Notes: generated from the sequence alone by a model not told the origin. A stretch of DNA of 64,000 nt from Nanobdellota archaeon (GCA_042572295.1 JBHPFA010000002.1:64180-128179), one strand, 5' to 3'. Numbered from the stretch's first letter, positions 8,998 to 49,190 are shown. Numbers and translations are program-made.

Positions 8998-8998
8998 G

Positions 8999-9898: not shown

Positions 9899-9908
9899 AA
9901 CCTTGAAA

Positions 9909-10058: not shown

Positions 10059-10103
10059 AGGAAAAAGGAAAAGAATTAAATAAAGACGAATATTTCAATT
10101 GAA

Positions 10104-10847: not shown

Positions 10848-10848
10848 A

Positions 10849-30402: not shown

Positions 30403-31602
30403 TTAGATTAGCAACCATAAAATAACTGGTATGATTAGACATCCCATTAAGTTCATTTTTCTTACTTGCTTCTTTATTGTTAAAATGCCTATGGCACTTG
30501 CAGTGATTAAGACAATTAATGAATAAAAACCCGAAAGGAATAAAGACATTATTATTAGGAAGATGATTACTGTCCAACAGATTTTCCCATAATCTACTTT
30601 TTGGATGTTCTTCGCAAAGAACTTAGATATTGCTATGCCTATGAATACAGAGAAGCTTCCTGCAACCAACATTACAAATAAAAGAGTTGTGAGCTGTAAT
30701 AATGTCATTTCATTTAGTAGGGTGTTTACTGCAGCAGCAGTTCCACTTCTTGATTTTCCAATAGTATAAATTGCTACGAAAGTTAGTCCCATTACTATGG
30801 TATTTATTGCACCTAATAATATAAGGAAACCTTTCTGAGTCAATTTTCCAGAGATTTGTGATCCAAGAACTGCGGCCTGTGCTGCACCAAGTCCTGGAAG
30901 AAAAGAACATATAGGGGCACTGACAATACTTGCCCCCAAGGCCTTCGTTATTTCTTTTTTTGAAACGTCTACTTTAGATATTTTTTGTTCTGGAATCTTT
31001 GTTTTTTGATTTATACTATCCAATAATATGCTTATACCAAATAGACCAGTCAATAAAGGGAATAAAGGTTGTTTTATTACCATAAAATTAAGGGTTGCTA
31101 TTCCCAATACTCCTGAAAGTAAGAAAATGAAGAAGGCCCAAAATCTGTTATTTTCTTTTAGGATTAAGAATAATGAAGCAACAATTAAGATATAAGGTAT
31201 TGATTTTTCTATAAGGGGGTAGGCCTTGGGAAGGATGAATAAAACTAGGGGGGTTATTAATAACATTAACAAAAGGCCAAAATAGCTTCCAATTATGCTT
31301 AGTTTTACTGCTTCATATCCCAAACCCTTCATTAGCATTTTATGTCCTGGAAGAACCCCTAGGGCCGTTGATTCTTCAGGAGCTCCAAGAAAAATGCTTG
31401 GAATGAAATCTATGAATGTGTGAGTGATTGACATGCTTACTATAAATACTACTAAAGGGAAGGTGTCTGTATATTGTAATAAAAATGTGGAAGCAGCGAT
31501 AAGAGAAACTGCAACCAAGTTAATATGAACTCCTGGAATCAAGCCTGTAAAGACTCCAAAAATTATACCTACCAAAATTGCAGCTGTTATTTCAAGAAAC
31601 AT
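30403..31602 (-). CDS. TctA-family (DUF112) membrane transporter-like protein
   Basis: About 10-12 TM segments with repeated G..PG.G motifs (TGLIPGVHIN, FLPGLGAAQAAVLG). Confidence 0.65.
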   Translation of the reverse strand: MFLEITAAILVGIIFGVFTGLIPGVHINLVAVSLIAASTFLLQYTDTFPLVVFIVSMSITHTFIDFIPSIFLGAPEESTALGVLPGHKMLMKGLGYEAVKLSIIGSYFGLLLMLLITPLVLFILPKAYPLIEKSIPYILIVASLFLILKENNRFWAFFIFLLSGVLGIATLNFMVIKQPLFPLLTGLFGISILLDSINQKTKIPEQKISKVDVSKKEITKALGASIVSAPICSFLPGLGAAQAAVLGSQISGKLTQKGFLILLGAINTIVMGLTFVAIYTIGKSRSGTAAAVNTLLNEMTLLQLTTLLFVMLVAGSFSVFIGIAISKFFAKNIQKVDYGKICWTVIIFLIIMSLFLSGFYSLIVLITASAIGILTIKKQVRKMNLMGCLIIPVILWLLI

Positions 31603-33161: not shown

Positions 33162-33859
33162 TTCCAAGGTTTATGTAAATGTCTTGGCTTAATTTCAGAG
33201 TCTAAAAATAAATCATAACCTTCTTTTTTTGCATCTATGCAGAAAAACATATCATCAAAAGCCACCTTGTTTTGCTCATATCTGAATTTTACTTTATTTA
33301 ATACTTCTTTGCTAATCAAAACACAACCGACTCCTATGCCTCCAACTTTAATTAATCCTTTATTTAGGATTTCTTGAGGGTTTGCCCTTCTTATTTTATC
33401 GCCTTCTTGCAAATAAACTAATGAAAGTTCTATTGTGATTTTTTTTATTTCTTTAGTTTCTTTATCTTGCACTACTAGGGTCATTGGTTTACCATAATAT
33501 CCTGCAACAATGTCTTTTTGATGCTCTAAGAACTTAATCAATATATTTTTTTCTGGAATAATGTCTTGTTCTAAAGAAAAGAAATAATCATAATCTTCTT
33601 TCATTGCTTTTTCCCTCAGCAGATTTCTAGAATGGACTATCCTTTCTTTTACGTTTTCGAAATAAGGGGCTTTTATCACCTTAATTCCCTTTTTCTTTAA
33701 ATTATTGAAAAAATCTTCTGATTGGGAGTTATCGGCTAGAAGATAATCAACTTCATGCTTTCCTTTTGAGAATTCGATTATTTCTTCTACTCTTTTAATC
33801 CACAAATCTATACAATAAGAATATCTTTCATAAGTGGGACAACCAATTAATATTTTCAT
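33158..33859 (-). CDS. GT-A fold glycosyltransferase-like protein
   Basis: KILIGCPTYERYSY..., a D-rich acceptor/donor loop (LEQD) and GIGVGCVLISKEV. The family assignment is tentative. Confidence 0.5.
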   Translation of the reverse strand: MKILIGCPTYERYSYCIDLWIKRVEEIIEFSKGKHEVDYLLADNSQSEDFFNNLKKKGIKVIKAPYFENVKERIVHSRNLLREKAMKEDYDYFFSLEQDIIPEKNILIKFLEHQKDIVAGYYGKPMTLVVQDKETKEIKKITIELSLVYLQEGDKIRRANPQEILNKGLIKVGGIGVGCVLISKEVLNKVKFRYEQNKVAFDDMFFCIDAKKEGYDLFLDSEIKPRHLHKPWN

Positions 33860-33861
33860 TT

Positions 33862-35646
33862 TTATACTGGAAGGGGGACCAATTCACCCATGGCATTAAT
33901 TATATTGTTATTACAGTTAGAACAGTGGCCACATGAATCTTTATTATCATCACAGTCGGAAGTTGTTTTTTGACGATAATCTATGAAGTTTTGCATAATC
34001 TTAGTTATCTCTTTTTCTTTTAGACCTTCAGTTTTACTAAGTTTAACTTTGTCTTTACCAGAAAACTTTCCAAGAAAGTAATTTCCTTCTTTATCTACAT
34101 AACCGATCTTACTTTTTCCAGTTTGGCCTACAAAATAAATATTTTCTGAACCCATTTCGGGTTCTTTTTCGTTTAAGTAAGAAACAATAATTTCTTTGAA
34201 ATCTAAATGTGTGTAAAGTTCTTTTATCTCTTTTTCTTCTAAATTTGGATTAATTATAACTAAAGGGATTTGGTAATTCTGTAATTTTCTTTCATAATCT
34301 CCTTTTTCTCCATGGTCTGAGATGATTACTATGAAGGCATCTTCAAGGATTTCTTCTTTTTCTAAAAATTCATAAATCTCTAGTAAATAATCGTTATAAT
34401 ATTCTATTCTACTCTTTCCAATTTCTTTATAGTACTCAGATCCATGCCCATAAATTAATTCTTGCATTAAAAAGAGCCCTTTATCTTTGTTATCCTTAAT
34501 GATTTCTTTTACTTCATCAATTACTGCGTTGTCTTCGCATCCAAAAAGGAATTCAAATTCATCAAGACAGAAATATTCTCCCTTTGTTTCTTCTGGAGAG
34601 TTGATTATTGAAACATCTGTCCAGTTATGGACTCTCATTAAAGTAATGGGTTTGCTCAAGGCAGCAATGGCTTGAGTGTGATAGTTATTTTGATTAAAAA
34701 GATCTACAATATTTTTTTCTTCAAGCACATATCCATAAAAGTTTATCCAATCTTTGATGTAACATTCAAATGGAATGTAATGGGATCCTAGAAGGACCCA
34801 TATTGAAGTTCTACTGTCTTGGTTTGTGGTGTAGTAGTTCGAAAATAAATGGGAATATTTTTCTGTTTTCTTAAAGAAATTTCTTTCTTCAGGTATTTTG
34901 GCAATTTCACTTTCAAAAACAGGATAAGATATCTCCTCCATGATGAATAATAGCACTTTTTTACCTTCTGGGAGAGAATAATCTGAATAATCTGTAATTC
35001 TTTTATCAAAAGTTTCAGGATTGTATTCTCTTTCTTGAATTGCTTTGGTTGTAAAAGATACTTCTCCAACATAATCTTTGAATAATTTTTCTGAAATAGT
35101 GTTTGTGTACATATTAGAAACAATTCCGGGGCTGAACAAAAGCACTATTATTGAGAGTATGATTAAAATGATGAAACTAATTTTAAGATAAGGTTGTATT
35201 TTTTTGAGGAACTTTGGATTTGCTAATGCCGCAAAACAAATTAAACCAATAATTATTGGAATCATTGCTAAATATTTTACATGTATTAAGTCTGTTAGAA
35301 CTATACTTATATTACTTATATTTAAATTACCCATTGTAAATTTCATTTGTATTGATCTATCCAGGAGTAGGGAGTTTACACTGAAGACTATAAAATGAAA
35401 TATTGCAGTAATAAAGAATAATACTCTTGTTGTGAGGAATAAGGCCTTCTTATCCTTTGTTTTTTGTTCTATAAAAGAGAATATCAGATATATTATAATT
35501 AGAACTAGGAAATCAAATAAGGAATTTGCAAAAATCCCCCAGTAATTTTTTGAAAAAAAGAACTTGATTAAGAATAAAATGGCCCCCATCAATAAAACTA
35601 ACCTAAGAGTATAGTTCTCAAGTGTAAAAAACTCCTTCTTATCCAT
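33862..35646 (-). CDS. Membrane-anchored sulfatase/phosphoglycerol-transferase (LTA-synthase-like) family protein
   Basis: About five N-terminal TM helices followed by an alkaline-phosphatase-superfamily domain (VLLFIMEE..., VIISDHGEKGD). Cys-rich C-terminal tail DCDDNKDSCGHCSNCNNN. Confidence 0.6.
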   Translation of the reverse strand: MDKKEFFTLENYTLRLVLLMGAILFLIKFFFSKNYWGIFANSLFDFLVLIIIYLIFSFIEQKTKDKKALFLTTRVLFFITAIFHFIVFSVNSLLLDRSIQMKFTMGNLNISNISIVLTDLIHVKYLAMIPIIIGLICFAALANPKFLKKIQPYLKISFIILIILSIIVLLFSPGIVSNMYTNTISEKLFKDYVGEVSFTTKAIQEREYNPETFDKRITDYSDYSLPEGKKVLLFIMEEISYPVFESEIAKIPEERNFFKKTEKYSHLFSNYYTTNQDSRTSIWVLLGSHYIPFECYIKDWINFYGYVLEEKNIVDLFNQNNYHTQAIAALSKPITLMRVHNWTDVSIINSPEETKGEYFCLDEFEFLFGCEDNAVIDEVKEIIKDNKDKGLFLMQELIYGHGSEYYKEIGKSRIEYYNDYLLEIYEFLEKEEILEDAFIVIISDHGEKGDYERKLQNYQIPLVIINPNLEEKEIKELYTHLDFKEIIVSYLNEKEPEMGSENIYFVGQTGKSKIGYVDKEGNYFLGKFSGKDKVKLSKTEGLKEKEITKIMQNFIDYRQKTTSDCDDNKDSCGHCSNCNNNIINAMGELVPLPV

Positions 35647-35768
35647 ATTTATTCTTTCGAAACTGAATTTATAAGCTTTTGTAAGGCTGGGGGCAATTAT
35701 TCCATTATCTCCATAAATAGCTTCTCTGACTTGGAAATTTTTATATAGTGTCCTTTTTTAAGAGTGTG

Positions 35769-36650
35769 ATGGAAATTAAGGCAAGAAGGGTTGAGTCACC
35801 TTCCTCTATCAATACCTATAATACCTGTCCCAGGAAGTACTATTATAATTATATAGAAAGACTGCCTACAAAAGGAAATATCCATACAATCAAAGGGAAT
35901 GTGGTGCATTCAGTGCTTGAAACCTTCTTCGATCAAGAGATTCCAGAGAATATCAATTATGACAATGCAGGAGAATGGTTCAAGAAACAGTTATTTTCTC
36001 TTTTTGCTAAGTTTTGGAAAGAAAAAAAAGACTTAGTCAAAGAAATAGCTATTTCTGAAGGAGAAGAAGCAGTAGGAATTAATGATTGTGTTGATATAAT
36101 CTATTTGTGGGCTGGTTTGCTTATTGATAAAATGGAGAAAACTGACCTTCCATTTAAAGAAGCTTTTCAAGTGTTTAAACCAAAACATAAAGAGCAGTAT
36201 TTCAAGTCTAGTTACCTTTCAGTTCATGGATTTGTAGATGTCATCGAGGAAATTAATAACAGTATAAGATTAATGGACTATAAAACTTCTAGTTCTTCTT
36301 ATATTAGTGATGATTATTTGTTGCAATTAGGAATCTATGCCTTGCTTTATCAAGAAGCTTTTAATTCTCCTCCTCAAGAAGTAGGAATTTATTTTTTAAG
36401 GGATGTAAATGGGGAGAAGGTATTGAAAGTTACAGATTATCTTTTAAACAATGCAAAAAGGAAAATTCTTGAGCATCATGGAAAGACCCAATCTGGAGAG
36501 ATAAGGGCTTATCCAAGAAAACCTTCTTATTTGTGTAAATGGTCTACTGGACAATGCGATTTCTATAATTTTTGTTATAACAAAAAAGGAGCATTAAAAG
36601 AAGAAAGTCCTTGTAAAGCAGTAAAGCAAGCTGTTGAACTTAAGGCATGA
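35769..36650 (+). CDS. PD-(D/E)XK nuclease with Cas4/AddB-like Fe-S Cys cluster (stand-alone Cas4-like/RecB-family exonuclease)
   Basis: N-terminal Cys (CPRKYYY), the D..(D/E)xK core (VHGFVDV, LMDYKTS), QLGIYALL and the C-terminal CKWSTGQCDFYNFC. Confidence 0.7.
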   Translation: MEIKARRVESPSSINTYNTCPRKYYYNYIERLPTKGNIHTIKGNVVHSVLETFFDQEIPENINYDNAGEWFKKQLFSLFAKFWKEKKDLVKEIAISEGEEAVGINDCVDIIYLWAGLLIDKMEKTDLPFKEAFQVFKPKHKEQYFKSSYLSVHGFVDVIEEINNSIRLMDYKTSSSSYISDDYLLQLGIYALLYQEAFNSPPQEVGIYFLRDVNGEKVLKVTDYLLNNAKRKILEHHGKTQSGEIRAYPRKPSYLCKWSTGQCDFYNFCYNKKGALKEESPCKAVKQAVELKA

Positions 36651-36700
36651 AAACCTTTTTAATCAAAGGTGACTTGAATAATTCATCAAAAAGAGGCTAA

Positions 36701-37690
36701 ATGAAAGTTGTAATTAATGGTTTTGGAAGAATTGGTAGACAGTTTTTTCAGGCTGCTTTGGAACAGAATCTACCCGTAGAATTTATCATTAATGGTATCT
36801 CTAATCCAGAGAATGCAGCCTACCTTTTAAAATATGATTCTGTTTATGGGAAGTCTAAGTTGAGTGTTCATGTTTCTAAGGGTGATTTGGTTATTGGAAA
36901 ACATAAAATAAAGGTTTTGAATGAAAGAGATCCTAAAAAGTTTCCTTGGAAAAAATTGAAAGTGGATTTAGTTATTGAGTCCACTGGGAAGTTTAGATCT
37001 AAAGAATTGGCTATGGCTCATGTTAATGCGGGTGCAAAGAGGGTGTTGATTACTGCAACTGCAAAAAATGTTGATGCACTTATTGTTCCAGGAATCAATT
37101 CTAAAACTTTGAAAAAAGAACATAAAGTAATTTCTATGGCTTCTTGCACTACAAATTGTGTTACTCCCATGTTTAAGATAGTTGATGATGTTTTTGGAAT
37201 TAAGGAAGGATTCATGGTTACTGCACACAGTTATACCTCTTCACAAAGACTTGTTGATGGAACTCATAAAGATTTTAGGAGGGGAAGGAGTGCTGCGAAT
37301 AATATTGTTCCAACAAGTACAAGTGCAGCAGATGCTGCCGCGAAAGTTTTGCCACACTTAAAAGGAAAACTTGATGGATATGCATTAAGAGTCCCTGTTG
37401 TTGATGGTTCTGTAGTTGATTTGAGTATAGAAGTTAAGAAAAAGCCAACTGTTGATAAAATAAATAATGCTTTTAAGAAATTTTCAAATGGAAAATTAAA
37501 AGGGATTGTAGAATATTCGAAGGAACCTTTAGTCTCTACAGATATTTTAAGGAATTCTCATTCATGTATTTTTGATTCTTTATTAACAAAAGTCAGGGGT
37601 AATCTGATTAATATTGTTGGATGGTACGATAATGAGTGGGGCTACTCTTCAAGATTGGTTGATATTGTAAGGATAATTAAAAAACTTTAA
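36701..37690 (+). CDS. gap: Glyceraldehyde-3-phosphate dehydrogenase, type I (bacterial/eukaryal class)
   Basis: INGFGRIGR, active site ASCTTNC and WYDNEWGYS are class I GAPDH hallmarks, not the archaeal class II. Confidence 0.92.
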   Translation: MKVVINGFGRIGRQFFQAALEQNLPVEFIINGISNPENAAYLLKYDSVYGKSKLSVHVSKGDLVIGKHKIKVLNERDPKKFPWKKLKVDLVIESTGKFRSKELAMAHVNAGAKRVLITATAKNVDALIVPGINSKTLKKEHKVISMASCTTNCVTPMFKIVDDVFGIKEGFMVTAHSYTSSQRLVDGTHKDFRRGRSAANNIVPTSTSAADAAAKVLPHLKGKLDGYALRVPVVDGSVVDLSIEVKKKPTVDKINNAFKKFSNGKLKGIVEYSKEPLVSTDILRNSHSCIFDSLLTKVRGNLINIVGWYDNEWGYSSRLVDIVRIIKKL

Positions 37691-37703
37691 AGAGGAATAA
37701 AAA

Positions 37704-38858
37704 TTGAAGACTCTTGATAGTATTGATGTAAAAGGCAAGGTTGTTTTAGTGAGGGTGGATCTTAATTCTTCTGTTGTTAAAGGTAAAGTTTTTGATTCTC
37801 CAAGATTCAAAGCGCATTCTGAAACAATTAAAGAGCTAAAGAAGAAGAAGGCCAAGGTAATTATCTTGGCACACCAAGGAAGGCCTGGCAATAAGGATTT
37901 TTTAGGTTTGAAGAAACATGCTAGGATATTGAATAAATATGTCAAGGTTAAATTTGTTGGTGATGTGATTGGAAAAAAAGCTTTGAGAGCAATTTCCGAA
38001 TTAAAAAATGGAGATGCCTTACTTTTAGATAATGTAAGAAAATTGAAAGAGGAGTTTAAACCTTCAAATAGGAATAAACTAGTCAAAGTTTTATCAAAAG
38101 TTTCAGATATTTATGTGCAAGATGCTTTTTCTGTGGTGCATAGAAATCAAACTTCTGTTGTAAGTTTTCCAAAATCTCTTCCTCCCTATGTTGGAAGGAC
38201 TCTTGAGAGAGAATTGAAGTCTCTCAGTAAATTAAAAGCTTCTGGGAAAAAGTCAGTTTATCTTGTTGGTGGAATAAAGATTGGAGAAGAGTTTAGCTTG
38301 ATTGAAAAAGCGATTAAGGAAAATAAGACTGTTCTTACTGGAGGATATCTTGGATCGCTATGTTTAATTGCTAAAGGGTATGATGTTGGTTCTTTAAGCA
38401 AAGTTTTGCGTAAGAAGGGAGAATACAAATATCTTTCAAAAATAAAGAAGTATATCAAAAGTGGCAAACTTGTTTCCCCTATAGATATTGCAGTGAGTAT
38501 CAATGGAAAAAGAAAAGAACTTTCCTTATCAGCTCTTCCAACAGATTACCCTATCTTAGACATAGGGAAGAAAACTGTAGGGCTTTACAAAGATTATCTC
38601 AGAAAGGCGAATTTTGTAGTCATAAGGGGTGCTCCCGGTTATGCTGAGCTTAAGAATTTTAGATGGGGAACTGAACAATTATTAAGAGCAATCGCCTCTT
38701 CAAACTCTTTTTCCATTATGGGTGGAGGAAGTTTATCTACCATTGTCAAAGAATTAAGAATAAATACTAAAAGATTCTCCTATATTAGTCTTGCAGGGGG
38801 CGCTTTTGTTAGATATCTAGCAGGAGAAAGACTTCCAGGATTAGAGGTGTTAAAATGA
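37704..38858 (+). CDS. pgk: Phosphoglycerate kinase (archaeal type), TTG start
   Basis: VRVDLNS, ILAHQGRPG and GGGS...AGGAF. TTG start with agagga 7 nt upstream. Confidence 0.9.
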   Translation: MKTLDSIDVKGKVVLVRVDLNSSVVKGKVFDSPRFKAHSETIKELKKKKAKVIILAHQGRPGNKDFLGLKKHARILNKYVKVKFVGDVIGKKALRAISELKNGDALLLDNVRKLKEEFKPSNRNKLVKVLSKVSDIYVQDAFSVVHRNQTSVVSFPKSLPPYVGRTLERELKSLSKLKASGKKSVYLVGGIKIGEEFSLIEKAIKENKTVLTGGYLGSLCLIAKGYDVGSLSKVLRKKGEYKYLSKIKKYIKSGKLVSPIDIAVSINGKRKELSLSALPTDYPILDIGKKTVGLYKDYLRKANFVVIRGAPGYAELKNFRWGTEQLLRAIASSNSFSIMGGGSLSTIVKELRINTKRFSYISLAGGAFVRYLAGERLPGLEVLK

Positions 38859-39640
38859 AATATTCAATTGGAGTAGATATTGGTGGAACAAAGATTGCAT
38901 GTGGTTTAGTTGATTCTAAAGGAAATCTTAGGAAAAAAGTTTTGTATAAAACTGGAAAGATTAAGAAAGAAGCCTTGAATAGAATCAAGAAAGCAGTCTC
39001 TTTGTTGCTTGAAGGTGTAAGGGATGATGTGAAAGGGATTGGAGTAGGAATTCCTGGAACAATTAGTAAAACTGGAAAACTTGACGATCTTCCAAACTTA
39101 AGAATTCTTGAAGGAACAGATTTGGTTGGATTTTTGAAAAAGAGTTTTAAGAAAAAAGTAATTATGGAAAATGATGCTTCTTGTGCAGCACTTGGAGAAT
39201 ATAAATTTGGAGTTGGTCGTGGTGTAAAGAATTTATATGTGGTGACTTTAGGAACTGGAGTTGGTGGTGGTGTGATAATTGATGGAAAACTTTATACTGG
39301 GAGAGGAAATGCTTCTGAACCAGGACATATGTTAATTGGAAAACAAGAATGGGAAGATGTCTGTTCTGGTAAGGCGTTAAGTAAATTCCTTAAAAAAGGT
39401 GAAAAAAGAGGTTATGAAGATTATTCTTATTATTTGGGAATCGGTTTGAGCAACATAATCAAATTATATGATCCTGAATTGATTGTTTTAACTGGAGGTG
39501 TTACAATTCGAAAAGATTATTTTTTGAAAAAAGCAATTAAGGTAGCTAAGCAAAACACTTTCTTTCCAATCTGTGAGATTAAGGCTTCTAACTTTCCAGA
39601 AGACATAGGTATTATCGGTGCAGCAGCCCTTATCTTTTGA
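38855..39640 (+). CDS. ROK-family sugar kinase (glucokinase-like)
   Basis: GVDIGGTKIACGLVD, ENDASCAALGE, LGTGVGGGVI and EPGHM. ATGA overlap with the pgk stop. Confidence 0.8.
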   Translation: MKYSIGVDIGGTKIACGLVDSKGNLRKKVLYKTGKIKKEALNRIKKAVSLLLEGVRDDVKGIGVGIPGTISKTGKLDDLPNLRILEGTDLVGFLKKSFKKKVIMENDASCAALGEYKFGVGRGVKNLYVVTLGTGVGGGVIIDGKLYTGRGNASEPGHMLIGKQEWEDVCSGKALSKFLKKGEKRGYEDYSYYLGIGLSNIIKLYDPELIVLTGGVTIRKDYFLKKAIKVAKQNTFFPICEIKASNFPEDIGIIGAAALIF

Positions 39641-39953
39641 TATCTTGGGCTTCAATTTCTAATTTTCCGTAATATTCATCTACTTTTCCTATTACTTCTA
39701 ATTTATCTCCTTTTGAGATCTCTAATCTTTGGAAAGAGACTACTCTTATGGATCCGCTTTTGTCAGATAGGTCAAAATAATTGCCCTTTTGGCCGATACT
39801 CATTACTTCTCCAGACACTTTAACGAATGAGTCAATGGTTGATTCATCAATTTCAGAGATTTCCTGCGTTTTTGGCTCTAAATAGTAGGCTAAAACTGCT
39901 AAAATAAGGGTGCCAATTAAGGCAGTAATCAGTGCAATTTTGGCTATTCTCAT
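39630..39953 (-). CDS. Membrane-anchored OB-fold protein
   Basis: N-terminal TM helix, then VKVSGEVMSI...IRVVSF...DKLEVIGKVDEYYGKLEI (tRNA_anti-like OB pattern). Confidence 0.55.
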   Translation of the reverse strand: MRIAKIALITALIGTLILAVLAYYLEPKTQEISEIDESTIDSFVKVSGEVMSIGQKGNYFDLSDKSGSIRVVSFQRLEISKGDKLEVIGKVDEYYGKLEIEAQDIKR

Positions 39954-40013
39954 ACATAGTTCGTTTTAATCAAAAGATTTAAATAGTTGTTATCACGCTG
40001 TAATGAATACAAA

Positions 40014-41918
40014 ATGGTCAAAAAACTAGATTATACATCTAATGCCCTAAAAAAGGCAGTTAGCGACGATAAGCCAGCAGATTCTGCCTTTAAGGGGTTG
40101 AAAAAGGCAGCTTTAGCGGCTGGATATGGGCTATCTTTATTCATAAGTTCTTTGGCCCCAGCAGCAAATGCCCTGGCAGAAGACTTCAAGAATGCTGGAG
40201 AAATCTTTGATAATATTCAGTATTCTTATGATAGTATTGTTAATATGGCAGTTCAAAAGGGATGTGATGAGAAATATCTTGAAAAAAGTATTAGTTGGTG
40301 GTCAAATGACTTCCTGAAGACCAATCCAGGATACTTAGATAATTTACCAGATAGCGAAAAAGAGTCTTTGAAGGATATATTACAAAATCATGGTAAGGCT
40401 CTTAAAAAGAAATTTGATGTTGCTTGTCCTCAAGTGGGAGAATTATCAGAAACTGTTCCTGTACCAGAACCTAAGAAAAAGGAAGTTCCAAAAGCAAAAC
40501 CTCAAGAAGACTTAGAAGAGAAAGTAAAGGCTATTGAACCTAGGGAAGATCCCACTCCTCAAATACCTAATTATTTTATTCAATCCTCAAAATATGAAGC
40601 TCAAGGTAAGGCCTTGATGAATGAAAGTCCAAGAAGGGCTAAAAAGTTGTTCAAGAAATCTCTAAAGTTACTTTCAAAAGATAAAGGTGGAGACTACTCT
40701 AGCACTAAAAAAGAATTGTTAGAATCTATCGAAGACTGTAATACTTTGGTTAGTGCAGAGAGATTAAGTAATACCTATAAAAAAGTTGAAAATCATATTA
40801 CAGAAGCAAATAATGCTAAAATGCCGGAAAAGATATTAAAACATTTCAAAAAGGCATTAAAAAGTTTAGAAAGAATCGGAGATCAAGGGGGAAAGTATGA
40901 TTCTCTTAAGACACAGTTAGAAGATGAAATTAGTTATTATGATGATGCAGCAAAAGGTGATCCTAAAAAAGAAAAAGAAAAGAAGGATACTATTTTTGCT
41001 AAGGTAGATAGATTAGGAGACAGAGTCTTGGATAGAAAAGGAACTTTCAAGAAGTATGGATCAGATTTATCAAGATATGCTGGAAGGGCTGGACCAAATA
41101 GGTTTGGGGCTGGATGGCTTAAGAAAAGAATTGAAACAGGAACTATAGCAACTTTTCGTGGACCATTTATTGATTTGAGATTACATCCCGATCTTCATAA
41201 ACTTTTGGGAGCGGATAGAAAAGGTGAGGAAAATCTAATTTCAGAAGTTGATTTAACTTACAAAACTTTAGGTGGTAGTTTAGAGAATATTACTGGTGCT
41301 AATGCAAGTCTTAAGGACTTGTTATTTAAGTTCAAATTAGGATTTGATCTTGGAAAACCTAAGGGAGAGGTTAAAAACACTTATATCAGGGCCGCAGTGG
41401 GATATTTTTATAATAGTCAAAATTTAGATGTTGAAATGTCTAAATATAACCTTGAGACTAATAGAAGTGTAAGCAATGAAGGAGCTGTACTGTTGCTAGG
41501 TCTAAGAGGAAAGAATTGGAACTTGACTTTGGAAGATATGTTGAGTACAAAGATGACTACAAGTGACCAAGTAAAGATTGATAATGAAGTAACTTACTCA
41601 AGCAAGGATCTTAAATCAAACGGGAATCAATTCTCTTTAGCATTTGAGTATTCTCCAAAACACAGTCTTTATTTGGCGACAAATTTTAACATGTCTAATT
41701 TTTCATATGCTTTATCAAGTCAAGAGACAAAAGAATTGGGATTCGAAGTTGGAAAGAATTTTGCATTAGATAAGAAGATTTTGGGTTCTCAACCAGTAAT
41801 TATTAGACCATCAGTTTACTGGCTAACTACTAAGTATGACAGTACGGATGATAATTCTGGAAAGGGTAGTGCGAAAGAATTTGGGCTTAAGCTAAATTAT
41901 GTTTTTGGAAACAAGTAA
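40014..41918 (+). CDS. Secreted/envelope protein with helical-repeat middle and beta-rich C-terminal domain
   Basis: Signal/anchor-like h-region with AxA (LFISSLAPAANA-LAED), an internal duplication (KKLFKKSLKLLSKDKGGDYSS / KHFKKALKSLERIGDQGGKYDS) and a C-terminal ~250 aa with alternating hydrophobic strands ending ...EFGLKLNYVFGNK. ATG at 40014 preferred to the TTG at 39987. Confidence 0.5.
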   Translation: MVKKLDYTSNALKKAVSDDKPADSAFKGLKKAALAAGYGLSLFISSLAPAANALAEDFKNAGEIFDNIQYSYDSIVNMAVQKGCDEKYLEKSISWWSNDFLKTNPGYLDNLPDSEKESLKDILQNHGKALKKKFDVACPQVGELSETVPVPEPKKKEVPKAKPQEDLEEKVKAIEPREDPTPQIPNYFIQSSKYEAQGKALMNESPRRAKKLFKKSLKLLSKDKGGDYSSTKKELLESIEDCNTLVSAERLSNTYKKVENHITEANNAKMPEKILKHFKKALKSLERIGDQGGKYDSLKTQLEDEISYYDDAAKGDPKKEKEKKDTIFAKVDRLGDRVLDRKGTFKKYGSDLSRYAGRAGPNRFGAGWLKKRIETGTIATFRGPFIDLRLHPDLHKLLGADRKGEENLISEVDLTYKTLGGSLENITGANASLKDLLFKFKLGFDLGKPKGEVKNTYIRAAVGYFYNSQNLDVEMSKYNLETNRSVSNEGAVLLLGLRGKNWNLTLEDMLSTKMTTSDQVKIDNEVTYSSKDLKSNGNQFSLAFEYSPKHSLYLATNFNMSNFSYALSSQETKELGFEVGKNFALDKKILGSQPVIIRPSVYWLTTKYDSTDDNSGKGSAKEFGLKLNYVFGNK

Positions 41919-41919
41919 A

Positions 41920-44900
41920 ATGAATAATTTAATGAAGAAATTAGTTATGGTATTTGTATTATTAATGGTAATTCCAGGAGTTTTAGCTTTAGGCATTTCT
42001 CCAGCAACTCCAGATACTACAGATGGTCTAACTTGTACTGGGGGAGAACAGGGATTTACTTACAAATGGTTCCATAGTTCAGTTGCAGATCCTAATTATC
42101 TAGATAGTGGGATAAGCTTACTTCCAACCCAGACTTCAAAAGGTTTAACGATTTTTTGTCAGACTTATTTTGACCTTCCTCTTGGAGGGGGTTCTGTTCC
42201 GGGAGTCTCTACAAGTATTGTGATAGGGAATGCACCACCTCTTGCTCCAGTAGTTTCATTTATTGGAGAGTCTTATTTTGCTAATTCTGCCATTAATGTT
42301 TTTGCTAATGCTACAGATCCAGATAGTGATCCTAAGACTTACTATTATACTTTCAGAAATCAAACAGCAGTATTGCAAACAGGTACTTCGAACACTTATG
42401 CCTGTTCATGGCAGAATTGTACAAAACATACAAACATTAGTGTAGAAGTTGCAACTTTTGATGGAACTGATTATTCTCTTACAAACACTACAAATTTATC
42501 CTTAATATTAAATTCAGCACCAGTTATTTCCTCATTTGTGCCTGTTAATCCAAATCTTTACATTTATGAGTTACTTAATGCTTCTTTGACTGTTACAGAT
42601 GCAGACAATGATTCTTTAGCAGCTATTTTCCAATTTTATAATTTTAATTCTTCAACTATAGTACAAGCTTTTTCAGGCGTAAATGCATATAGTCTTGCTT
42701 TATCTGATGCACATGATACTATTGGAGTTACAGTTAATGTTAGTGATCTAGATGCAGTTCCTACTCAGAGTTTCTTTAATTTGACAGTTCTTAATAGCGA
42801 TCCTATTTGGAACCTGTCAAGTGTAAGCTTTAATCAAGGTCAAACCCTTTTCCTTAATTTAAGTTTGAATGGTAGCGATTCAGATGGTGATGCTTTAAGC
42901 TTTAGTAGAGTGGATCCAGCAAATGTTACTTCAACACTTAATGGGGATAACTTGACAATTAGTTCAATAGGAAATTTTGCAGGAACACAGAATATTAACT
43001 TGACTGTTACAGATGCTTATGGGGGATCTTTGAATTATAGTTTACCAGTTACAGTTATTGATACAGGAGATCCTTTTGTGAATATTACTTCTCCAGTGGA
43101 TGGTTTTGAATATAATACTACTTCAAGAAACGCTACAATCAATTATACAATAAATGATAATGGTGTGTTAGACACTTGTTGGTATGTATCTAATTTTAAT
43201 GGAACTAATAATGTTGCTTGTGGCGGAAACTCCTTGAATTTTTATAATCTAGCTGATGGGAATTATAACTTTACTTTATTTGCAAATGATACACTGAATA
43301 ATGAAGCAAATGATACTTTGAGTTTCTCAGTATCATTAAATGATGCCCCTATTTGGAATTTGTCAAATATCAGTTTTGATCAGAATACTTCTTATTTCCT
43401 TAATATGAGTTTGAATAGTAGTGATCAAGATGGAGATCCTTTAACTTATAGTTCAGTTAGTGCAGCAAATATAACTGCAACTGTTAATGGAGATAATTTA
43501 ACAATTACACATGATACATTGTTTTTGGGAGCTCAAACAGTTAATTTGACTGTAAGTGATGGAACTTTAAGTGCTACTCAAGTTGTGTTAGTTACAATTT
43601 TAGATGCAGAAAATCCTTTTGTAAATATTACTTCTCCAGCCCTTTGGACTAATTATACCTCTACAAAGAATGTTACTGTTAATTATACTATTACAGATAA
43701 TGGTAATTTGAGTGCTTGTTGGTATAGTTTGAACGGTGGAGCGAGCCAAAGTCTAAATTGTAGTGGAAATTCTTTCAATTTCACTAACATGGCTGATCAA
43801 AACCATTCAGTTGTGGTGTATGCTAATGATTCAAGAAATAATCTTGGAAGCGATATTGTGAACTTTACAGTTGATTTTAATACAGTTCCGAGTGTTTCTT
43901 CAGTCATTTTGAATTCAGGGGCTAGAACAGCTGATGATTTAATTTGTAATTTTACATTAACAGATTTAGAACAAACTGCCTCTGATGCTTTAACTGCAAA
44001 TTATACTTGGTTTAAGGATAATGTTGCTGATTTGAGTGGAACAATCACAGCAACTAATGGAACTGCTAAGTGGATTACTCTTGATTCTGGAAATACTAGT
44101 AAGGGAGAAAATTGGACTTGTCAAATAACTTCTTTTGATAATAAAGAATATGGAAGTGTTTTGAACTCAAGTGGTTCAGTAATATTGAATACTGTTCCAG
44201 TATTGAATACAAGTATTTCAGATCCTTCTCAACCTTGGTTACAAAATACTAACAAATCAATTGATCTTACTGATGCATTCTCAGATGTTGATGGGGATGA
44301 TTTGAATTATACTGCTTCAGTTGCGCAAAACATAACTGCCTATATAGACAACTCAACAAATATGGTTATTCTAGAGCCAGATGTAGGATTTAGTGGTGTG
44401 AGGACAATTAACTTTACTGCGTGGGATGATGAAGATGGGAATATCACTTCTTTAAATGTTAACTTAAATGTAGGGGTTAGCACAATAATTGATTCTTTCA
44501 TAGCAGGAACTAATTATTCTGGAACTTTCTATCTTTCAAATGTAACTGGAGTGACTGTATCTACAATTAATATATCAAATGTTACAGGATCACCACTTAC
44601 TGTGTATAATTCTACTGTATTCAATTCAACTATAATTGATTCTGAGTTGTTTAATTGTATTGTTCTTGATTCAAGATTAGAAGGAATGTTCTGTTCGGAT
44701 GCTTTTATTGACCCTTCAGATGTTAAATATAGCAATATCACTGGAAGTAATATAACAGATTCTCACGTTTGGTATAGTAATGTGACCTATTCTAATGTAA
44801 GTCTTTCAAGTATCGATAATTCAACTGTGACAGGTGCCAATGTTAATGATTCTAATGTAAGCTTGTCTATAGTTACTGGAGATTCCAATTTAGAGAATGC

Positions 44901-46362
44901 AATAGTTATTCTTTCAAATTTAACAGATACAAATGTAACTGATTCAACATTAACAAATGTCACAGCAATTGGTTCAACTATATTTAATTCAACAATTGCC
45001 AATAACACTTTGAACTTTGCAAATGTTTCTAATGGTGTGCTTTACAATGGAACTATGTTGTTACAGAATGGATCAGTCTATAATGCTTCTGATGTTGGCC
45101 AACAAAATTTAACAAGTTTGGTTAATTCTCCCCCTATTGCGAATATTTTTGCTCCTTTAGACTTAAGCAGCCATGATAATGGTGTTACAATAGTGTTTAA
45201 TGCAACTGGAAGTACTGATGTGAATATTGGTGGATTATTGGCTGATAATATTACTTATAATTGGGACTTTGGAAATGGTGTAAGTGTCAATACGACTAAT
45301 GTGACTCATTCCTATACTTATACTGTAGATGGGCCTTATAATGTTACTTTGACAGTTACTGATAATTATAATGAAACAGATACGGATATGATTGGTATAA
45401 CTGTTTCTACCCCCGTTGTACCTCCAATAATTCCTGGAGGAAGTCCTGGTGGAAGTACAAATGATAATGGAGAAGAAGTAACATTATCTAAAGGACAGAC
45501 TAAAAGACTTTCTCAAAATGGATATATTAGATTTAAGTTCTTAAATGAGTTCCATAAAGTTACATTAGAGAGGATTTATTCTGACTTTGTTAAAGTTAAA
45601 GTAGAATCTACACCACAAACTGGAATATTGAAAGTAAATGATGTAGGAAAGTTTGATTTGAATGATGATGGAACGTATGATCTTAAACTTACACTTACAA
45701 AATTAACCTCTTCAATTGCTACATTCAGATTTGAATCAACATCTGAGAAGATTGTAGTAGATGAGCCTGAACCAGAAGCAGAAGCAGGAAATGAAACAGC
45801 TGAGGAAGAACCTGAAATAGAAGAAGAAAAAGAAGAAGGCAAGATTAGCAAATGGTGGAATACTATTACTGGAAAAGCGAGTTCTAGTTGGAATAGTGCT
45901 AAAGAGTTTTCAATCCATGAGAAGTTTAAGAACTTCTGGACTTGGTTAAAGGAGAAATTCAGTAAAGATGAAGTAGAAGCAGGAAATGAAACAGCTGAGG
46001 AAGAACCTGAAATAGAAGAAGAAAAAGAAGAAGGCAAGATAAGCAAATGGTGGAAAAATCTTACTACGAAAGTAAAAGACTTTACTTCAAAAGTAAAAGA
46101 CTTTTTATCCAACAATAAGAAAAACTTAATCCCTGCTGCTATAGGGGTAGTTGTTCTTGGATTCTTAGGATGGGTCTTATTCAAATTAAAGAAAGGAAAT
46201 CAACCAGTTAAATCAAAAGTCAGACCTCTTGTTGGTGGGGAGAAAGAAGTCCCAGTAGAAAAGAAAAAGAAATGGAAAAATCCAATTAAAGTTGTGGGCA
46301 ATGCTATAAGAAATAGTTTGGTTAAGGTTTTAGAAAAGCTATTAAATAAATTAAAAAAGTAA
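41920..46362 (+). CDS. Giant (~1480 aa) cell-surface glycoprotein/adhesin with Ig/cadherin-like repeats, beta-helix-like region, PKD domain and C-terminal TM anchor
   Basis: Signal peptide MNNLMKKLVMVFVLLMVIPGVLALG and very many N-x-S/T sequons. A ~180-aa two-domain unit is repeated (DPIWNLSSVSF.../APIWNLSNISF...). PKD-like NWDFGNG...YNVTLTVTD; anchor AAIGVVVLGFLGWVLF plus a basic tail. The ATG lies 2 nt after the upstream stop. Confidence 0.75.
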   Translation: MNNLMKKLVMVFVLLMVIPGVLALGISPATPDTTDGLTCTGGEQGFTYKWFHSSVADPNYLDSGISLLPTQTSKGLTIFCQTYFDLPLGGGSVPGVSTSIVIGNAPPLAPVVSFIGESYFANSAINVFANATDPDSDPKTYYYTFRNQTAVLQTGTSNTYACSWQNCTKHTNISVEVATFDGTDYSLTNTTNLSLILNSAPVISSFVPVNPNLYIYELLNASLTVTDADNDSLAAIFQFYNFNSSTIVQAFSGVNAYSLALSDAHDTIGVTVNVSDLDAVPTQSFFNLTVLNSDPIWNLSSVSFNQGQTLFLNLSLNGSDSDGDALSFSRVDPANVTSTLNGDNLTISSIGNFAGTQNINLTVTDAYGGSLNYSLPVTVIDTGDPFVNITSPVDGFEYNTTSRNATINYTINDNGVLDTCWYVSNFNGTNNVACGGNSLNFYNLADGNYNFTLFANDTLNNEANDTLSFSVSLNDAPIWNLSNISFDQNTSYFLNMSLNSSDQDGDPLTYSSVSAANITATVNGDNLTITHDTLFLGAQTVNLTVSDGTLSATQVVLVTILDAENPFVNITSPALWTNYTSTKNVTVNYTITDNGNLSACWYSLNGGASQSLNCSGNSFNFTNMADQNHSVVVYANDSRNNLGSDIVNFTVDFNTVPSVSSVILNSGARTADDLICNFTLTDLEQTASDALTANYTWFKDNVADLSGTITATNGTAKWITLDSGNTSKGENWTCQITSFDNKEYGSVLNSSGSVILNTVPVLNTSISDPSQPWLQNTNKSIDLTDAFSDVDGDDLNYTASVAQNITAYIDNSTNMVILEPDVGFSGVRTINFTAWDDEDGNITSLNVNLNVGVSTIIDSFIAGTNYSGTFYLSNVTGVTVSTINISNVTGSPLTVYNSTVFNSTIIDSELFNCIVLDSRLEGMFCSDAFIDPSDVKYSNITGSNITDSHVWYSNVTYSNVSLSSIDNSTVTGANVNDSNVSLSIVTGDSNLENAIVILSNLTDTNVTDSTLTNVTAIGSTIFNSTIANNTLNFANVSNGVLYNGTMLLQNGSVYNASDVGQQNLTSLVNSPPIANIFAPLDLSSHDNGVTIVFNATGSTDVNIGGLLADNITYNWDFGNGVSVNTTNVTHSYTYTVDGPYNVTLTVTDNYNETDTDMIGITVSTPVVPPIIPGGSPGGSTNDNGEEVTLSKGQTKRLSQNGYIRFKFLNEFHKVTLERIYSDFVKVKVESTPQTGILKVNDVGKFDLNDDGTYDLKLTLTKLTSSIATFRFESTSEKIVVDEPEPEAEAGNETAEEEPEIEEEKEEGKISKWWNTITGKASSSWNSAKEFSIHEKFKNFWTWLKEKFSKDEVEAGNETAEEEPEIEEEKEEGKISKWWKNLTTKVKDFTSKVKDFLSNNKKNLIPAAIGVVVLGFLGWVLFKLKKGNQPVKSKVRPLVGGEKEVPVEKKKKWKNPIKVVGNAIRNSLVKVLEKLLNKLKK
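45781..45859 (+). repeat. 79-bp intragenic direct repeat, copy 1
   Basis: gaagcaggaaatgaaacagctgaggaagaacctgaaatagaagaagaaaaagaagaaggcaagat[t/a]agcaaatggtggaa; one mismatch to 45976-46054. Encodes EAGNETAEEEPEIEEEKEEGKISKWW. Confidence 0.9.
45976..46054 (+). repeat. 79-bp intragenic direct repeat, copy 2
   Basis: See copy 1. The offset is 195 bp (65 codons, in frame). Confidence 0.9.
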
Positions 46363-46399
46363 ACGATAACTTTATAATTCTTAATTCTCCGGAGTGATT

Positions 46400-47788
46400 A
46401 TGTATTTCCATGTATTATTAGGAACAGAATGCAATTCTCAATGCAGATATTGTTATACTAAGAGCTGCAATGATTTTGGAAACGATCTTTCCAAGAAATT
46501 TAAAATAGATTTCTCAATGCCTCCAAAGCTTGAGTATTCTATTGAAGATTTGAAGAAGTTTGTTAAAGCTGAAGAAGGAAAAAGTCCTCATGTATTGACT
46601 TTTTATGGTGGAGAGCCTTTAATGCATATAGAAAAGATAAAAGAGACTATGGATTCTATTGATGCGAGGTATATGATTCAGACTAATGGGTTGTTGTTAG
46701 ATAAGTTGGGTAAGGAATATGTCAATCGTTTTGATATTATGCTTATTTCCCTTGATGGAGATAAAGCGATAACTGATTTTAATAGGGGCAAAGGAACTTA
46801 TGAGAGAGTCATGAAGAATATTGATTTGATTAAGAAGAATGGATTCAAAGGAGAGCTGATTGCAAGAATGGTGGTTGATGAACATTCTATGTTGTCAAAA
46901 CAAGTAAAACATTTAGTTGATGTAGGATTTACCTCTATTCATTGGCAATTGGATGCAGGGTTTAAGGTGAAGATTCTTTTGGCTGATATTCATGGGGCAT
47001 TAGATAATACTCCTTGGGATGTTTTAGAGAGAAGATATGGTTATTATGAAGCAGTTATTCCGACATTGATTAAATCAATGGGTGTAGATATTAAGGATTT
47101 GGAGATTGTTAAGGGAAGCACTTTTCAATTAAAGAAAGAATTTATGTATGATGTTTTAAGATTTTCAACATTTGCTTCAATGCATGATACTCATAAAGCT
47201 GCATCAGAAGTTGTTAAGCAAGGAGATAATCCAAAACTTGCTGGTTTGATTTATCCAGTAATGCAAGCTTTAGATGAGGTTTATTTAGAAGCTGATGCAC
47301 AACTTGGAGGAACAGATCAAAGAAAGATTTTTGTTTTAGCAAGAGAGACTTTGCCTAAGTTAGGGTATAAACCTAGGGTAGAAGTTATTAATCCTTTTAT
47401 TCCAGGACTTATTGGGAAGAAGATGTCTTCTTCTATTGAGAAATCTAAGATTGATTTCTTGGATGATGAGAAGACCGTTTTGGAAAAAGTGAAAAGTGCA
47501 GATTTTGTTGCAGGAAGTTCAGATAATGGAGTTATGGCCTTTTTGAAATATATTGTTTTTACTCTTAAAGGGGATAAAAAAGAGAAGTTTGTTATTGAAA
47601 GGCCCGAAAAGTACGGAGGGAATTTAGAATTCTCTAAATATGAAGAAGTTGAGAAATTAGTTCTTGATAAAAAGATACATCCTCTTGATTTGAAGAATGC
47701 TGTTGCTAAAGAAGTAAATAATTTATTGGTTTTATTCAGAAAAAATAAAGCAAAATTTGAAAAATTAGCTAAAATAGCTTATAGTTAA
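46400..47788 (+). CDS. Chimeric ORF: radical SAM core (N-terminal ~187 aa) fused in frame to an N-terminally truncated archaeal-type tyrosyl-tRNA synthetase
   Basis: CNSQCRYC (46430-46453), FYGGEPL and radical SAM core strands. From about 46961, KVKILLADIHGALDN..., IYPVMQALDE, GGTDQRKI, KMSSS (47420-47434), RPEKYGGNLEF and HPLDLKNAVA match TyrRS. The HIGH motif and first ~60 TyrRS residues are absent. Confidence 0.7.
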   Translation: MYFHVLLGTECNSQCRYCYTKSCNDFGNDLSKKFKIDFSMPPKLEYSIEDLKKFVKAEEGKSPHVLTFYGGEPLMHIEKIKETMDSIDARYMIQTNGLLLDKLGKEYVNRFDIMLISLDGDKAITDFNRGKGTYERVMKNIDLIKKNGFKGELIARMVVDEHSMLSKQVKHLVDVGFTSIHWQLDAGFKVKILLADIHGALDNTPWDVLERRYGYYEAVIPTLIKSMGVDIKDLEIVKGSTFQLKKEFMYDVLRFSTFASMHDTHKAASEVVKQGDNPKLAGLIYPVMQALDEVYLEADAQLGGTDQRKIFVLARETLPKLGYKPRVEVINPFIPGLIGKKMSSSIEKSKIDFLDDEKTVLEKVKSADFVAGSSDNGVMAFLKYIVFTLKGDKKEKFVIERPEKYGGNLEFSKYEEVEKLVLDKKIHPLDLKNAVAKEVNNLLVLFRKNKAKFEKLAKIAYS

Positions 47789-48207
47789 TTAAAAAGATTT
47801 CTTGGATTAGTAGTTTGTTGTGGAGGGTTTAAATCTTTTCTCCATTTTTGAATTAATTCAAATGCTTCTAATTGATCCATCTTTAATTTGTCCCTTAGAT
47901 GTGTGAGGGTTTCACCTTCACCCTTTTTTTGTTCCTTGAATAGTTGTTCAAGTTCTTCTTTAGGGATTACTCTGTTCTTTTCTTCCCAAGCTAAACGTTT
48001 TGGAGTTTTTGCCCCACATTCAGGACAGAAGTTTTCAGTTCCATTCATTTCTAGGCTACAACCCTTACATAATTTTGGAAGTTCTGTCTTTTTTTCTATG
48101 ACTGTTTTGTATCCTGCACGGTTTCCAGAAACAAGTTTGGAAAAAGCATCTGTTATGACTCCTTCCTTTTGATACTGTCTTAAATCCCTACAACTTCCAC
48201 CACTCAT
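47785..48207 (-). CDS. Zinc-ribbon protein (140 aa)
   Basis: CKGCSLEMNGTENFCPECGAKTP (CxxC...CxxC) plus a helical C-terminal half. Confidence 0.5.
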   Translation of the reverse strand: MSGGSCRDLRQYQKEGVITDAFSKLVSGNRAGYKTVIEKKTELPKLCKGCSLEMNGTENFCPECGAKTPKRLAWEEKNRVIPKEELEQLFKEQKKGEGETLTHLRDKLKMDQLEAFELIQKWRKDLNPPQQTTNPRNLFN

Positions 48208-48278: not shown

Positions 48279-49190
48279 TTATCTTAAATGGAGCTCTACA
48301 ATGTCTTTATCCTTTAATCTATGTTCTATACCCACACCTTGTCCGGGGAATTTTGCAGATTTTCCCCAGATTTTTGCAAATTTAAATTTTCTTAGGAAAT
48401 CTTTATGGACTTTGCTGGCCATGTCTTCTATTTTTGATCCTTCATTTAGAACTAATGGCTGTTTTGTGTGTTCTTTTCCCGGCTCTTTTGTATATACTCT
48501 TATCAGTTCAAGGTCTTCAAATATCTTCTTTTTTAATTCGTCTAGTCCTTCTCCAGTTTTAGCAGAAATTTTAAACGCATTCTTGAATAAAGATAATTTT
48601 TTTATTTCACTTTCTGGAAGAATGTCTGATTTATTTATTAGGAATATTTTTGGAGTAAAAGTATTTTCTTTTTTTAAGTAAGTTGAGATTTTGCTTAATT
48701 CTGGAAGAGATGTTGCTAATATCAAAACAATTTCTGCAACCTTTGCAACACTCAACCATTCACGAAAATCTTCTCCTATTGTTAATGGTGGAAGCTCTAC
48801 TGTTTGAACATTTATTCCTCCAAGGTTTAAAGTTCCAATCTCTGGTTTGGTTGTTGTGAATGGATAATCTTCTATTTGGGGTTTGGCATTTGTTAATTTA
48901 GTTAGGAGAGTACTTTTTCCAGAATTTGGAAAACCAATTATTACTATTTGAGCATCTCCTTCTTTTTTAACACCTGTAGAACGACCTCTTTTTTTAGTGC
49001 CTTCTTTTTTTAATTCCTTTTTTAATTTTGATAATCTGCTTCTTAGTCCTGCAAGCAAGTTTTCAGAACCTTTGTGTTTTGGGGCATGCTTGATCATCTC
49101 TTCTAATCCAGCAATTTTTTCTTCTGTTGTTATGGCGGCTAGGAATTGCTTTGAAGCCACACCATATTCAGGTCCTGCGTTAATTGGCAT
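48279..49190 (-). CDS. Obg/DRG-family GTPase with C-terminal TGS domain
   Basis: G1 GFPNSGKST, G2 FTT, G4 NKSD and the TGS-like IRVYTKEPGK...GQGVGIEHRLKDKDIVEL. Confidence 0.85.
   Translation of the reverse strand: MPINAGPEYGVASKQFLAAITTEEKIAGLEEMIKHAPKHKGSENLLAGLRSRLSKLKKELKKEGTKKRGRSTGVKKEGDAQIVIIGFPNSGKSTLLTKLTNAKPQIEDYPFTTTKPEIGTLNLGGINVQTVELPPLTIGEDFREWLSVAKVAEIVLILATSLPELSKISTYLKKENTFTPKIFLINKSDILPESEIKKLSLFKNAFKISAKTGEGLDELKKKIFEDLELIRVYTKEPGKEHTKQPLVLNEGSKIEDMASKVHKDFLRKFKFAKIWGKSAKFPGQGVGIEHRLKDKDIVELHLR

Follow-up and report, generated by a model that had tools for sequence, protein, structure and literature searches.

Chimeric open reading frame at the tyrS locus

The stretch of DNA analyzed in this study (the window) consists of 64,000 nucleotides from a Nanobdellota archaeon (GCA_042572295.1, JBHPFA010000002.1:64180-128179) and contains an open reading frame (ORF) in which the first part of a radical SAM enzyme is joined in frame to a tyrosyl-tRNA synthetase (TyrRS) without its N-terminus. 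The segments of this ORF, numbered from the first nucleotide of the window, are listed below; L002 (GCA_053535015.1) is the closest TyrRS relative with usable gene context.

46400..47788, plus strand: chimeric ORF of 462 amino acids, GTG at 46394 as alternative start, NCBI name "tyrosine--tRNA ligase"
46400..46954, plus strand: radical SAM/SPASM-derived segment, equivalent to residues 1-183 of the 369-amino acid L002 orthologue, 58% identity
46955..46963, plus strand: junction, GCA GGG TTT (Ala-Gly-Phe), GCAGGGTTT, encoded by both parent families at this point
46964..47788, plus strand: tyrS-derived segment, equivalent to residues 65-340 of L002 TyrRS, 72% identity

The ORF as called ran from GTG at 46394 to 47788 and encoded 464 amino acids, while a start at ATG 46400 gave the 462 amino acids of NCBI entry MFC1685773.1. 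The ATG was taken as the likelier start because relatives begin with MYFHV. Pfam profiles matched the ORF as Radical_SAM at amino acids 10-161 (E 3e-16) and as tRNA-synt_1b at amino acids 181-445 (E 4e-42, profile positions 28-291 of 292). The corresponding NCBIfam matches were to TIGR04084 (radical SAM/SPASM) at amino acids 8-188 (E 3e-44, profile positions 2-165 of 347) and to the TyrRS model PRK08560 at amino acids 187-454 (profile positions 61-330 of 342). These domain matches are far above chance level. The fused parts are thus the first 186-190 residues of a TIGR04084 enzyme and a DPANN/eukaryote-type TyrRS minus its first 61-64 residues or so, and the junction, as located by Pfam, NCBIfam and alignment with the L002 proteins, cuts both parents within their catalytic domains, away from domain borders.

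An in-frame chimera of this kind had been proposed in an initial annotation of the window from the sequence, and the ORF call and the Pfam, NCBIfam and Protein Data Bank (PDB) matches all agree with that proposal as well as supplying the profile boundaries that it called for. A structure prediction of the junction, also suggested at that time, was made with AlphaFold2 (AF2), but the model was too poor at the junction to be informative (mean predicted local distance difference test score 68.5, falling below 50 for the junction and a large part of the TyrRS core) and was discarded as evidence. The alignment used for this model (A3) mixed unrelated proteins, and AF2 is unable to judge the stability of a truncation.

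Radical SAM half

The radical SAM half of the ORF carries the CX3CX2C motif as CNSQCRYC (46430-46453), a SAM-binding GGE-type motif as FYGGEPL, and the SIHWQLDAGF that is conserved among TIGR04084 relatives. In an alignment with radical SAM relatives, homology ended right after S-[IV]-H-W-Q-[LI]-[DN]-A-G-F. The C-terminal 183 residues of the parent (L002 residues 187-369), including the whole SPASM domain, are gone from the chimera, and tblastn searches for this half in six frames of the window returned chance-level matches only. In agreement with the initial description of a radical SAM core without a SPASM region, the TIGR04084 profile match ends at position 165 of 347; the score of the chimera against this family (151.2 bits) is below the curated cutoff of 225. 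Judging from the motifs that are present (CX3CX2C, GGE, QTNG, SLDG, ELIARM and SIHWQL), this part probably keeps roughly the strands of a partial barrel and would have lost the rest. The TIGR04084 (AF0577-type) family is functionally uncharacterized, and no relevant paper was found in a full-text literature search on TIGR04084.

Many TIGR04084 relatives on long contigs are called as proteins of about 200 amino acids. The idea that these represent a natural form without SPASM was rejected, as they proved to be full-length genes split by frameshifts at varying positions. In all three short relatives examined (L001, 854-1971; L020, 2501-3632; L021, 2501-3633), the gene continues in another frame. 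These split genes look like frameshift errors or pseudogenes. Flye-style contig names were noted for L020 and L021, and a neighboring MFS gene in L021 is split as well.

TyrRS half

The TyrRS half holds GGTDQRK, KMSSS (47420-47434) and the C-terminal anticodon-binding region. Alignment of this KMSSS with KMSSS or KMSAS of relatives identified it as a KMSKS-type loop. The anticodon-binding region, which is of the archaeal/eukaryotic type, is kept, as indicated by alignment to residue 338 of human TyrRS and to the C-terminus of relatives and by conservation of RPEKYGG and HPLDLKNAVA. All motifs listed in the initial annotation, including FYGGEPL of the radical SAM half, were found in the translation, and the positions it gave for CNSQCRYC and KMSSS were correct.

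At the other end of this half, homology with nine full-length TyrRS relatives opened abruptly at AGFKVKILLAD, and the approximately 60 preceding residues of those relatives, including GTAPTGxPHxGY (the HIGH region), were without counterpart in the chimera. Likewise, in a PDB search, alignments of the TyrRS part opened at residues 56 and 57 of the human (E 6e-76) and M. jannaschii enzymes, respectively. The missing start (approximately 61-64 residues) comprises the first strand, the HIGH-motif region, the first helix and the N-terminal tyrosine-binding element. Loss of the HIGH-bearing N-terminus, put at about 60 residues in the initial annotation, is thus evident from both comparisons. The annotation had also reported no other tyrS in the window, and this was borne out by tblastn searches in all frames with TyrRS of human, M. 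jannaschii and five close relatives, in which neither another tyrS nor a TyrRS N-terminal piece was detected and matches were at chance level only.

Identity of the TyrRS part was 48% with human TyrRS and 35% with M. jannaschii TyrRS, and in this archaeon and its relatives the enzyme resembles eukaryotic cytoplasmic TyrRS far more closely than that of M. jannaschii. A cluster of relatives (P0045) includes a "Tyrosine-tRNA ligase, cytoplasmic" labeled by NCBI as from Candidatus Daviesbacteria, a member of the candidate phyla radiation (CPR). Lateral movement of TyrRS genes among DPANN archaea, CPR bacteria and eukaryotes was described by Mukai et al. (2017, PMC5370408), and the position of the TyrRS part in a DPANN/eukaryote-like clade fits that history. 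The approximately 120 closest TyrRS relatives are all single-domain proteins, most of about 338 amino acids, with no second Pfam domain.

Parent genes and synteny in relatives

The likely parents of the chimera were found side by side in L002, where a 369-amino acid radical SAM/SPASM gene (8524-9633), an 89-amino acid ORF (9673-9942) and a 340-amino acid tyrS (10001-11023) follow one another on the plus strand. Amino acids 3-190 of the chimera (in the 464-amino acid numbering) aligned with residues 1-186 of the L002 radical SAM protein at 58% identity, and amino acids 186-463 (same numbering) aligned with residues 60-337 of the L002 TyrRS at 72% identity. The window is without an equivalent of L002 nucleotides 9082-10192 (1,111 nucleotides), a span that contains the SPASM half of the radical SAM gene, the small ORF and codons 1-64 of tyrS. 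The 89-amino acid ORF, which is lost from the window, has no Pfam match; as it comes immediately after the gene for a SPASM-type enzyme, its product is a candidate substrate peptide or partner.

The genes on either side of the chimeric ORF were compared with those around tyrS in relatives by means of the following features.

39630..39953, minus strand: OB-fold (tRNA_anti-codon-like) gene match, 107 amino acids, left-flank synteny anchor
47785..48207, minus strand: Zn-ribbon-like gene, 140 amino acids (CxxC...CPEC), 4-nucleotide overlap with the tyrS stop, no Pfam match, right-flank synteny anchor
48279..49190, minus strand: DRG/TGS-type GTPase, right-flank synteny anchor

Downstream of tyrS in L002 is a minus-strand gene of 146 amino acids that overlaps the tyrS stop and is the orthologue (49% identity) of the 140-amino acid Zn-ribbon-like gene, so that the tail-to-tail overlap with tyrS is kept in both. 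The GTPase gene follows tyrS in L010 and in L013-L017 and is about 3.6 kb downstream in L018. On the left, the OB-fold gene is upstream of radical SAM/tyrS in L002 and, according to precomputed gene calls, upstream of tyrS in L015, L016 and L018. The order common to the window and several relatives is PolD-DP2, TctA (minus), the OB-fold gene (minus), tyrS, the DRG/TGS GTPase (minus), M16 peptidase and LigT. Since the flanks are collinear with those of relatives, the chimera sits at the native tyrS locus and both of its sides belong to one syntenic block. Other genes of the window are intact.

Junction and microhomology

Nine nucleotides at the junction are assignable to neither parent because both encode Ala-Gly-Phe (AGF) at this point, in the family contexts ...HWQ[LI][DN]AGF[WY]... 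(radical SAM) and ...LKAGFKVKILLAD... (TyrRS). The junction, placed at about 46961 in the initial annotation, can accordingly be refined to 46955-46963. Across it, the window reads CAA TTG GAT GCA GGG TTT and then AAG GTG AAG. At the same point the L002 radical SAM gene reads GAT GCA GGG TTT TAT and the L002 tyrS gene AAA GCT GGA TTT CAT. The L002 radical SAM and tyrS genes, both of which are AT-rich, share 30 direct 9-mer pairs, 15 of them in the same codon register. An in-frame join is thus unremarkable, because direct matches of 9 nucleotides are common and half of them are in register, and at AGF the frame is kept automatically because the same three amino acids are encoded by the microhomology in either gene. 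GC content and skew show no break at the junction, and the window contains no Ns. Collapse of a k-mer graph at a repeat was considered as a source of the join and rejected, as the parents share at most about 9 nucleotides and there is no longer repeat near the junction.

Uniqueness of the fusion and absence of decay

The fusion architecture was unique in a search of 5.8 billion proteins, the only match being P0001, which has the same sequence. A junction-centered query of 181 amino acids gave no junction-spanning match among 1.84 billion representatives; matches were one-sided only, and four that appeared ambiguous turned out to be single-family proteins. Similarly, a degenerate junction-peptide pattern had 0 matches in 241 million metagenome records. 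An exact 40-mer taken immediately after the junction had 0 matches in metagenome contigs of the Joint Genome Institute, indicating that the exact DNA of this organism is absent there. A literature search for radical SAM-TyrRS fusions found nothing relevant. The same fusion, which the initial annotation had proposed to look for in relatives, was therefore seen in none of them in either protein or metagenome searches.

Signs of decay were absent from both halves. Thus, the TyrRS part deviates at 1 of 96 near-invariant columns, as compared with an average of 1.34 and a maximum of 6 for 70 intact relatives, and the radical SAM part deviates at 2 of 37 such columns, as compared with an average of 0.73 and a maximum of 4 for its relatives. 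The lack of decay in either half indicates that the event was recent or technical; it is also compatible with a selected fusion, though nothing else backs that reading.

Origin of the chimera

The results are best explained by a local deletion between neighboring genes that yielded a non-functional chimera, and this account of the ORF, however the deletion arose, has a high probability on the comparisons made here. A deletion origin follows from the adjacency and common orientation of the parents in L002 and from the absence of the intervening stretch from the window. The chimera shows every feature of a deletion-generated chimeric ORF that can be looked for in a sequence, namely adjacent, co-oriented parents, missing intervening DNA and microhomology at the breakpoint. 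As to the origin of the ORF, the initial annotation had listed a deletion among its alternatives, and the finding that precisely the stretch between the L002 parents is gone bears this out. According to the model, an ancestral DPANN archaeon (Nanoarchaeota; Pacearchaeota/Woesearchaeota-like) would have had the arrangement seen in L002, with tyrS on the same strand as a TIGR04084 radical SAM/SPASM gene and a small ORF between them. About 1.1 kb between the AGF codons of the radical SAM gene and those of tyrS would then have been lost in one local deletion, removing the small ORF together with the SPASM-encoding half of its upstream neighbor and roughly 61-64 codons from the start of tyrS. The ends would have been joined at the AGF microhomology of about 9 nucleotides in the same register and hence in frame. 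The timing of the deletion appears to have been very recent.

The product would be a by-product of this deletion and not an enzyme. Class I synthetases without the first strand and HIGH region are unable to activate their amino acid, and the auxiliary-cluster domain is needed by SPASM enzymes. Taken as a functional enzyme, the chimera fails the defining features of both parent families.

Several points weigh against this interpretation. The adjacency of radical SAM and tyrS genes was seen in a single relative lineage, that of L002; the tyrS copies of L003 and L004 are 100% identical to that of L002 and are on short contigs lacking upstream context, and no radical SAM gene was present in the flank fetched upstream of tyrS for relatives L006-L019. 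The ancestral arrangement is therefore that suggested by one genome, which is about 28-42% diverged at the protein level, and loss of both activities is expected from knowledge of the families. In addition, the junction is known from the deposited sequence alone and a second tyrS was sought within the 64-kb window only.

Two forms of the deletion have to be considered, which differ in whether the organism itself carries it. In one, the assembler followed a technical artefact or an allele other than the consensus, and the radical SAM/SPASM gene, small ORF and tyrS of the organism are intact; this covers template switching in whole-genome amplification, polymerase chain reaction or library preparation as well as a rare deletion variant. 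Template switching in vitro uses short microhomologies, the gene that is destroyed is essential, single-copy and in its native position, neither half has decayed, and the junction was seen once, in one deposited contig. On the other hand, nothing else in the window points to poor assembly, and in a shotgun library made without amplification the correct path would normally prevail over one chimeric molecule. This explanation is a serious one, although somewhat short of an even chance. In the other, the deletion is real and fixed, the ORF is a fresh pseudogene and the organism survives through a second, e.g., laterally acquired, tyrS outside the window. The join is of the type left by microhomology-mediated deletion in living cells, identity of about 9 nucleotides is too short for collapse of a k-mer graph, which implies that the junction existed in physical DNA molecules, and elsewhere in the window the assembly is clean and the genes are intact; lateral TyrRS movement among DPANN archaea, CPR bacteria and eukaryotes (PMC5370408) provides a possible source of a second gene. 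However, it is the native, syntenic tyrS locus that was hit, there is no decay in either half and no second tyrS in the 64 kb. Furthermore, aminoacyl-tRNA synthetase genes as a class, TyrRS not being named individually, belong to the core of single-copy genes in 208 complete Nanobdellota genomes (bioRxiv 10.64898/2026.05.13.725050), so that a spare copy is not expected. A real deletion rescued in this way is thus possible but rather unlikely. Because of the native locus and the single-copy status of synthetases in the phylum, we lean slightly toward a technical or non-fixed origin over a deletion fixed in vivo, and nothing in the data favors a real, fixed loss of tyrS over a recent or technical deletion.

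All other readings, taken together, have at most a small share of the probability. One proposition, that the deletion is fixed, has destroyed the only native tyrS and has left the organism to rely on a laterally acquired TyrRS or on its host, or else that the chimera has been recruited as a tRNA(Tyr)-binding radical SAM protein, is decidedly improbable. A functional new fusion, in which the dimerization, KMSKS and anticodon-binding parts that are left of TyrRS would direct the radical SAM core to tRNA(Tyr) or a Tyr-related substrate, might seem to be suggested by the 462 open codons, the intact CX3CX2C, GGE-type, KMSSS and anticodon-binding elements, conservation equal to that of working relatives and the possible promoter upstream. 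However, the frame comes automatically with an in-register microhomology, and an event that was artefactual or very recent would equally leave no decay. No search turned up a second instance of the architecture, and both domains are cut inside their folds, whereas the TyrRS core is complete in known N-terminal fusions (B2-TyrRS), which occur in several organisms (PMC5370408). A genuine fusion with a novel function, one of the initial alternatives, is consequently very improbable. Even less credence attaches to a split TyrRS, the HIGH-containing N-terminal piece of which would be encoded elsewhere and assemble in trans, like the products of split genes in Nanoarchaeum equitans. Split protein genes are known in Nanoarchaeota, and the search covered 64 kb of a 162-kb contig. 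Such a gene would nevertheless be expected to have its own start codon rather than an in-frame join to half of the upstream neighbor seen in L002 with the intervening DNA missing; moreover, the window contains no N-terminal fragment and the closest TyrRS relatives, about 120 in number, are uniformly single-domain and mostly of about 338 amino acids. Least credible of all is a mis-join of two unrelated contigs or organisms during assembly or binning. The uniqueness of the protein and the functionally unrelated nature of its halves would agree with such an event, but the flanks form one syntenic block, the parents are neighbors in L002, GC content and skew do not change, and the approximately 9 nucleotides shared at the join are too few for a graph mis-join. 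The assembly chimera of the initial annotation is thus refuted by collinear flanks and uniform composition insofar as it meant a mis-join of unrelated sequences, while a local technical deletion, e.g., from a chimeric template, is a possible form of it that stands.

Comparison with known proteins and consequences for annotation

From residue 188 or so to 462, the chimera resembles DPANN TyrRS (P0005, P0002) as well as human mini-TyrRS (1N3L/5THH) and M. jannaschii TyrRS (1J1U), and carries GGTDQRK, KMSSS and the anticodon-binding region at the native syntenic locus, but it differs from these enzymes in having a foreign half-domain in place of the HIGH-bearing N-terminus. Residues 1-188 match TIGR04084 proteins, from which the chimera differs in complete absence of the SPASM auxiliary-cluster domain. 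The B2-TyrRS of CPR bacteria (Mukai et al., 2017, PMC5370408) likewise has a foreign domain before a TyrRS of the archaeal/eukaryote type and comes from an uncultured lineage with small genomes; in contrast, the synthetase core of the chimera is truncated and its architecture was seen once. Compared with chimeric ORFs that result from microhomology-mediated deletion, the adjacent parents, missing DNA, truncations and in-register microhomology are the same, and the chimera stands out only in that an essential gene is among its parents. The event is thus of an ordinary kind, i.e., a microhomology deletion fusing neighbors, at an unusual place.

The NCBI name of MFC1685773.1 is explained by its score of 221.8 bits against the NF006330 equivalog, which clears the cutoff of 220 by 1.8 bits even with the HIGH region absent; against TIGR00234, the score of 110 bits is under the cutoff of 113.8. 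Judged by its sequence, this annotation is misleading and the protein should not be counted as a working TyrRS. MFC1685773.1 is therefore an example of how rule-based annotation can hide a broken essential gene, and the chimera would mislead estimates of genome completeness, metabolic reconstructions and surveys of domain architecture. If the deletion were real and fixed, this would be a symbiotic archaeon without a core translation gene at its native locus.

Other features of the window

Two further features are directly upstream of the chimeric ORF.

41899..46362, plus strand: surface-type, repeat-rich protein of 1487 amino acids, directly upstream, left-flank context
46371..46378, plus strand: A/T-rich box TTTATAAT, approximately 25-30 nucleotides upstream of the ATG, consensus match not above shuffle expectation

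The A/T-rich box may have served the radical SAM parent gene as an archaeal promoter of the TATA type, in which case transcription of the chimera would be probable, provided that the locus is real. The N-terminal part of the 1487-amino acid protein resembles a protein of 618 amino acids encoded upstream of the radical SAM gene in L002. A C-terminal membrane anchor is predicted for the 1487-amino acid protein, and an acidic, glutamate-rich repeat, AGNETAEEEPEIEEEKEEGKISKWW, is present twice. At the DNA level, the two copies of this repeat are visible as direct repeats of 78 nucleotides (45800-45877 and 45995-46072), which are 91% identical.

Further upstream, approximately 15 kb separate TctA (30403-31602) from the chimeric ORF, as compared with 1-5 kb between TctA and tyrS in relatives. 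The region from 31677 to 41918, which encodes a B12-binding radical SAM protein, a sulfatase-family protein, a PD-(D/E)XK nuclease, GAPDH, PGK and a ROK kinase, is a variable island of the genome. The large subunit DP2 of PolD (24020-27457) is free of inteins, with 1145 amino acids and full profile coverage, while its orthologue in L015 (1-2917) has 1655 amino acids and contains an intein and a LAGLIDADG endonuclease inserted in the catalytic domain.

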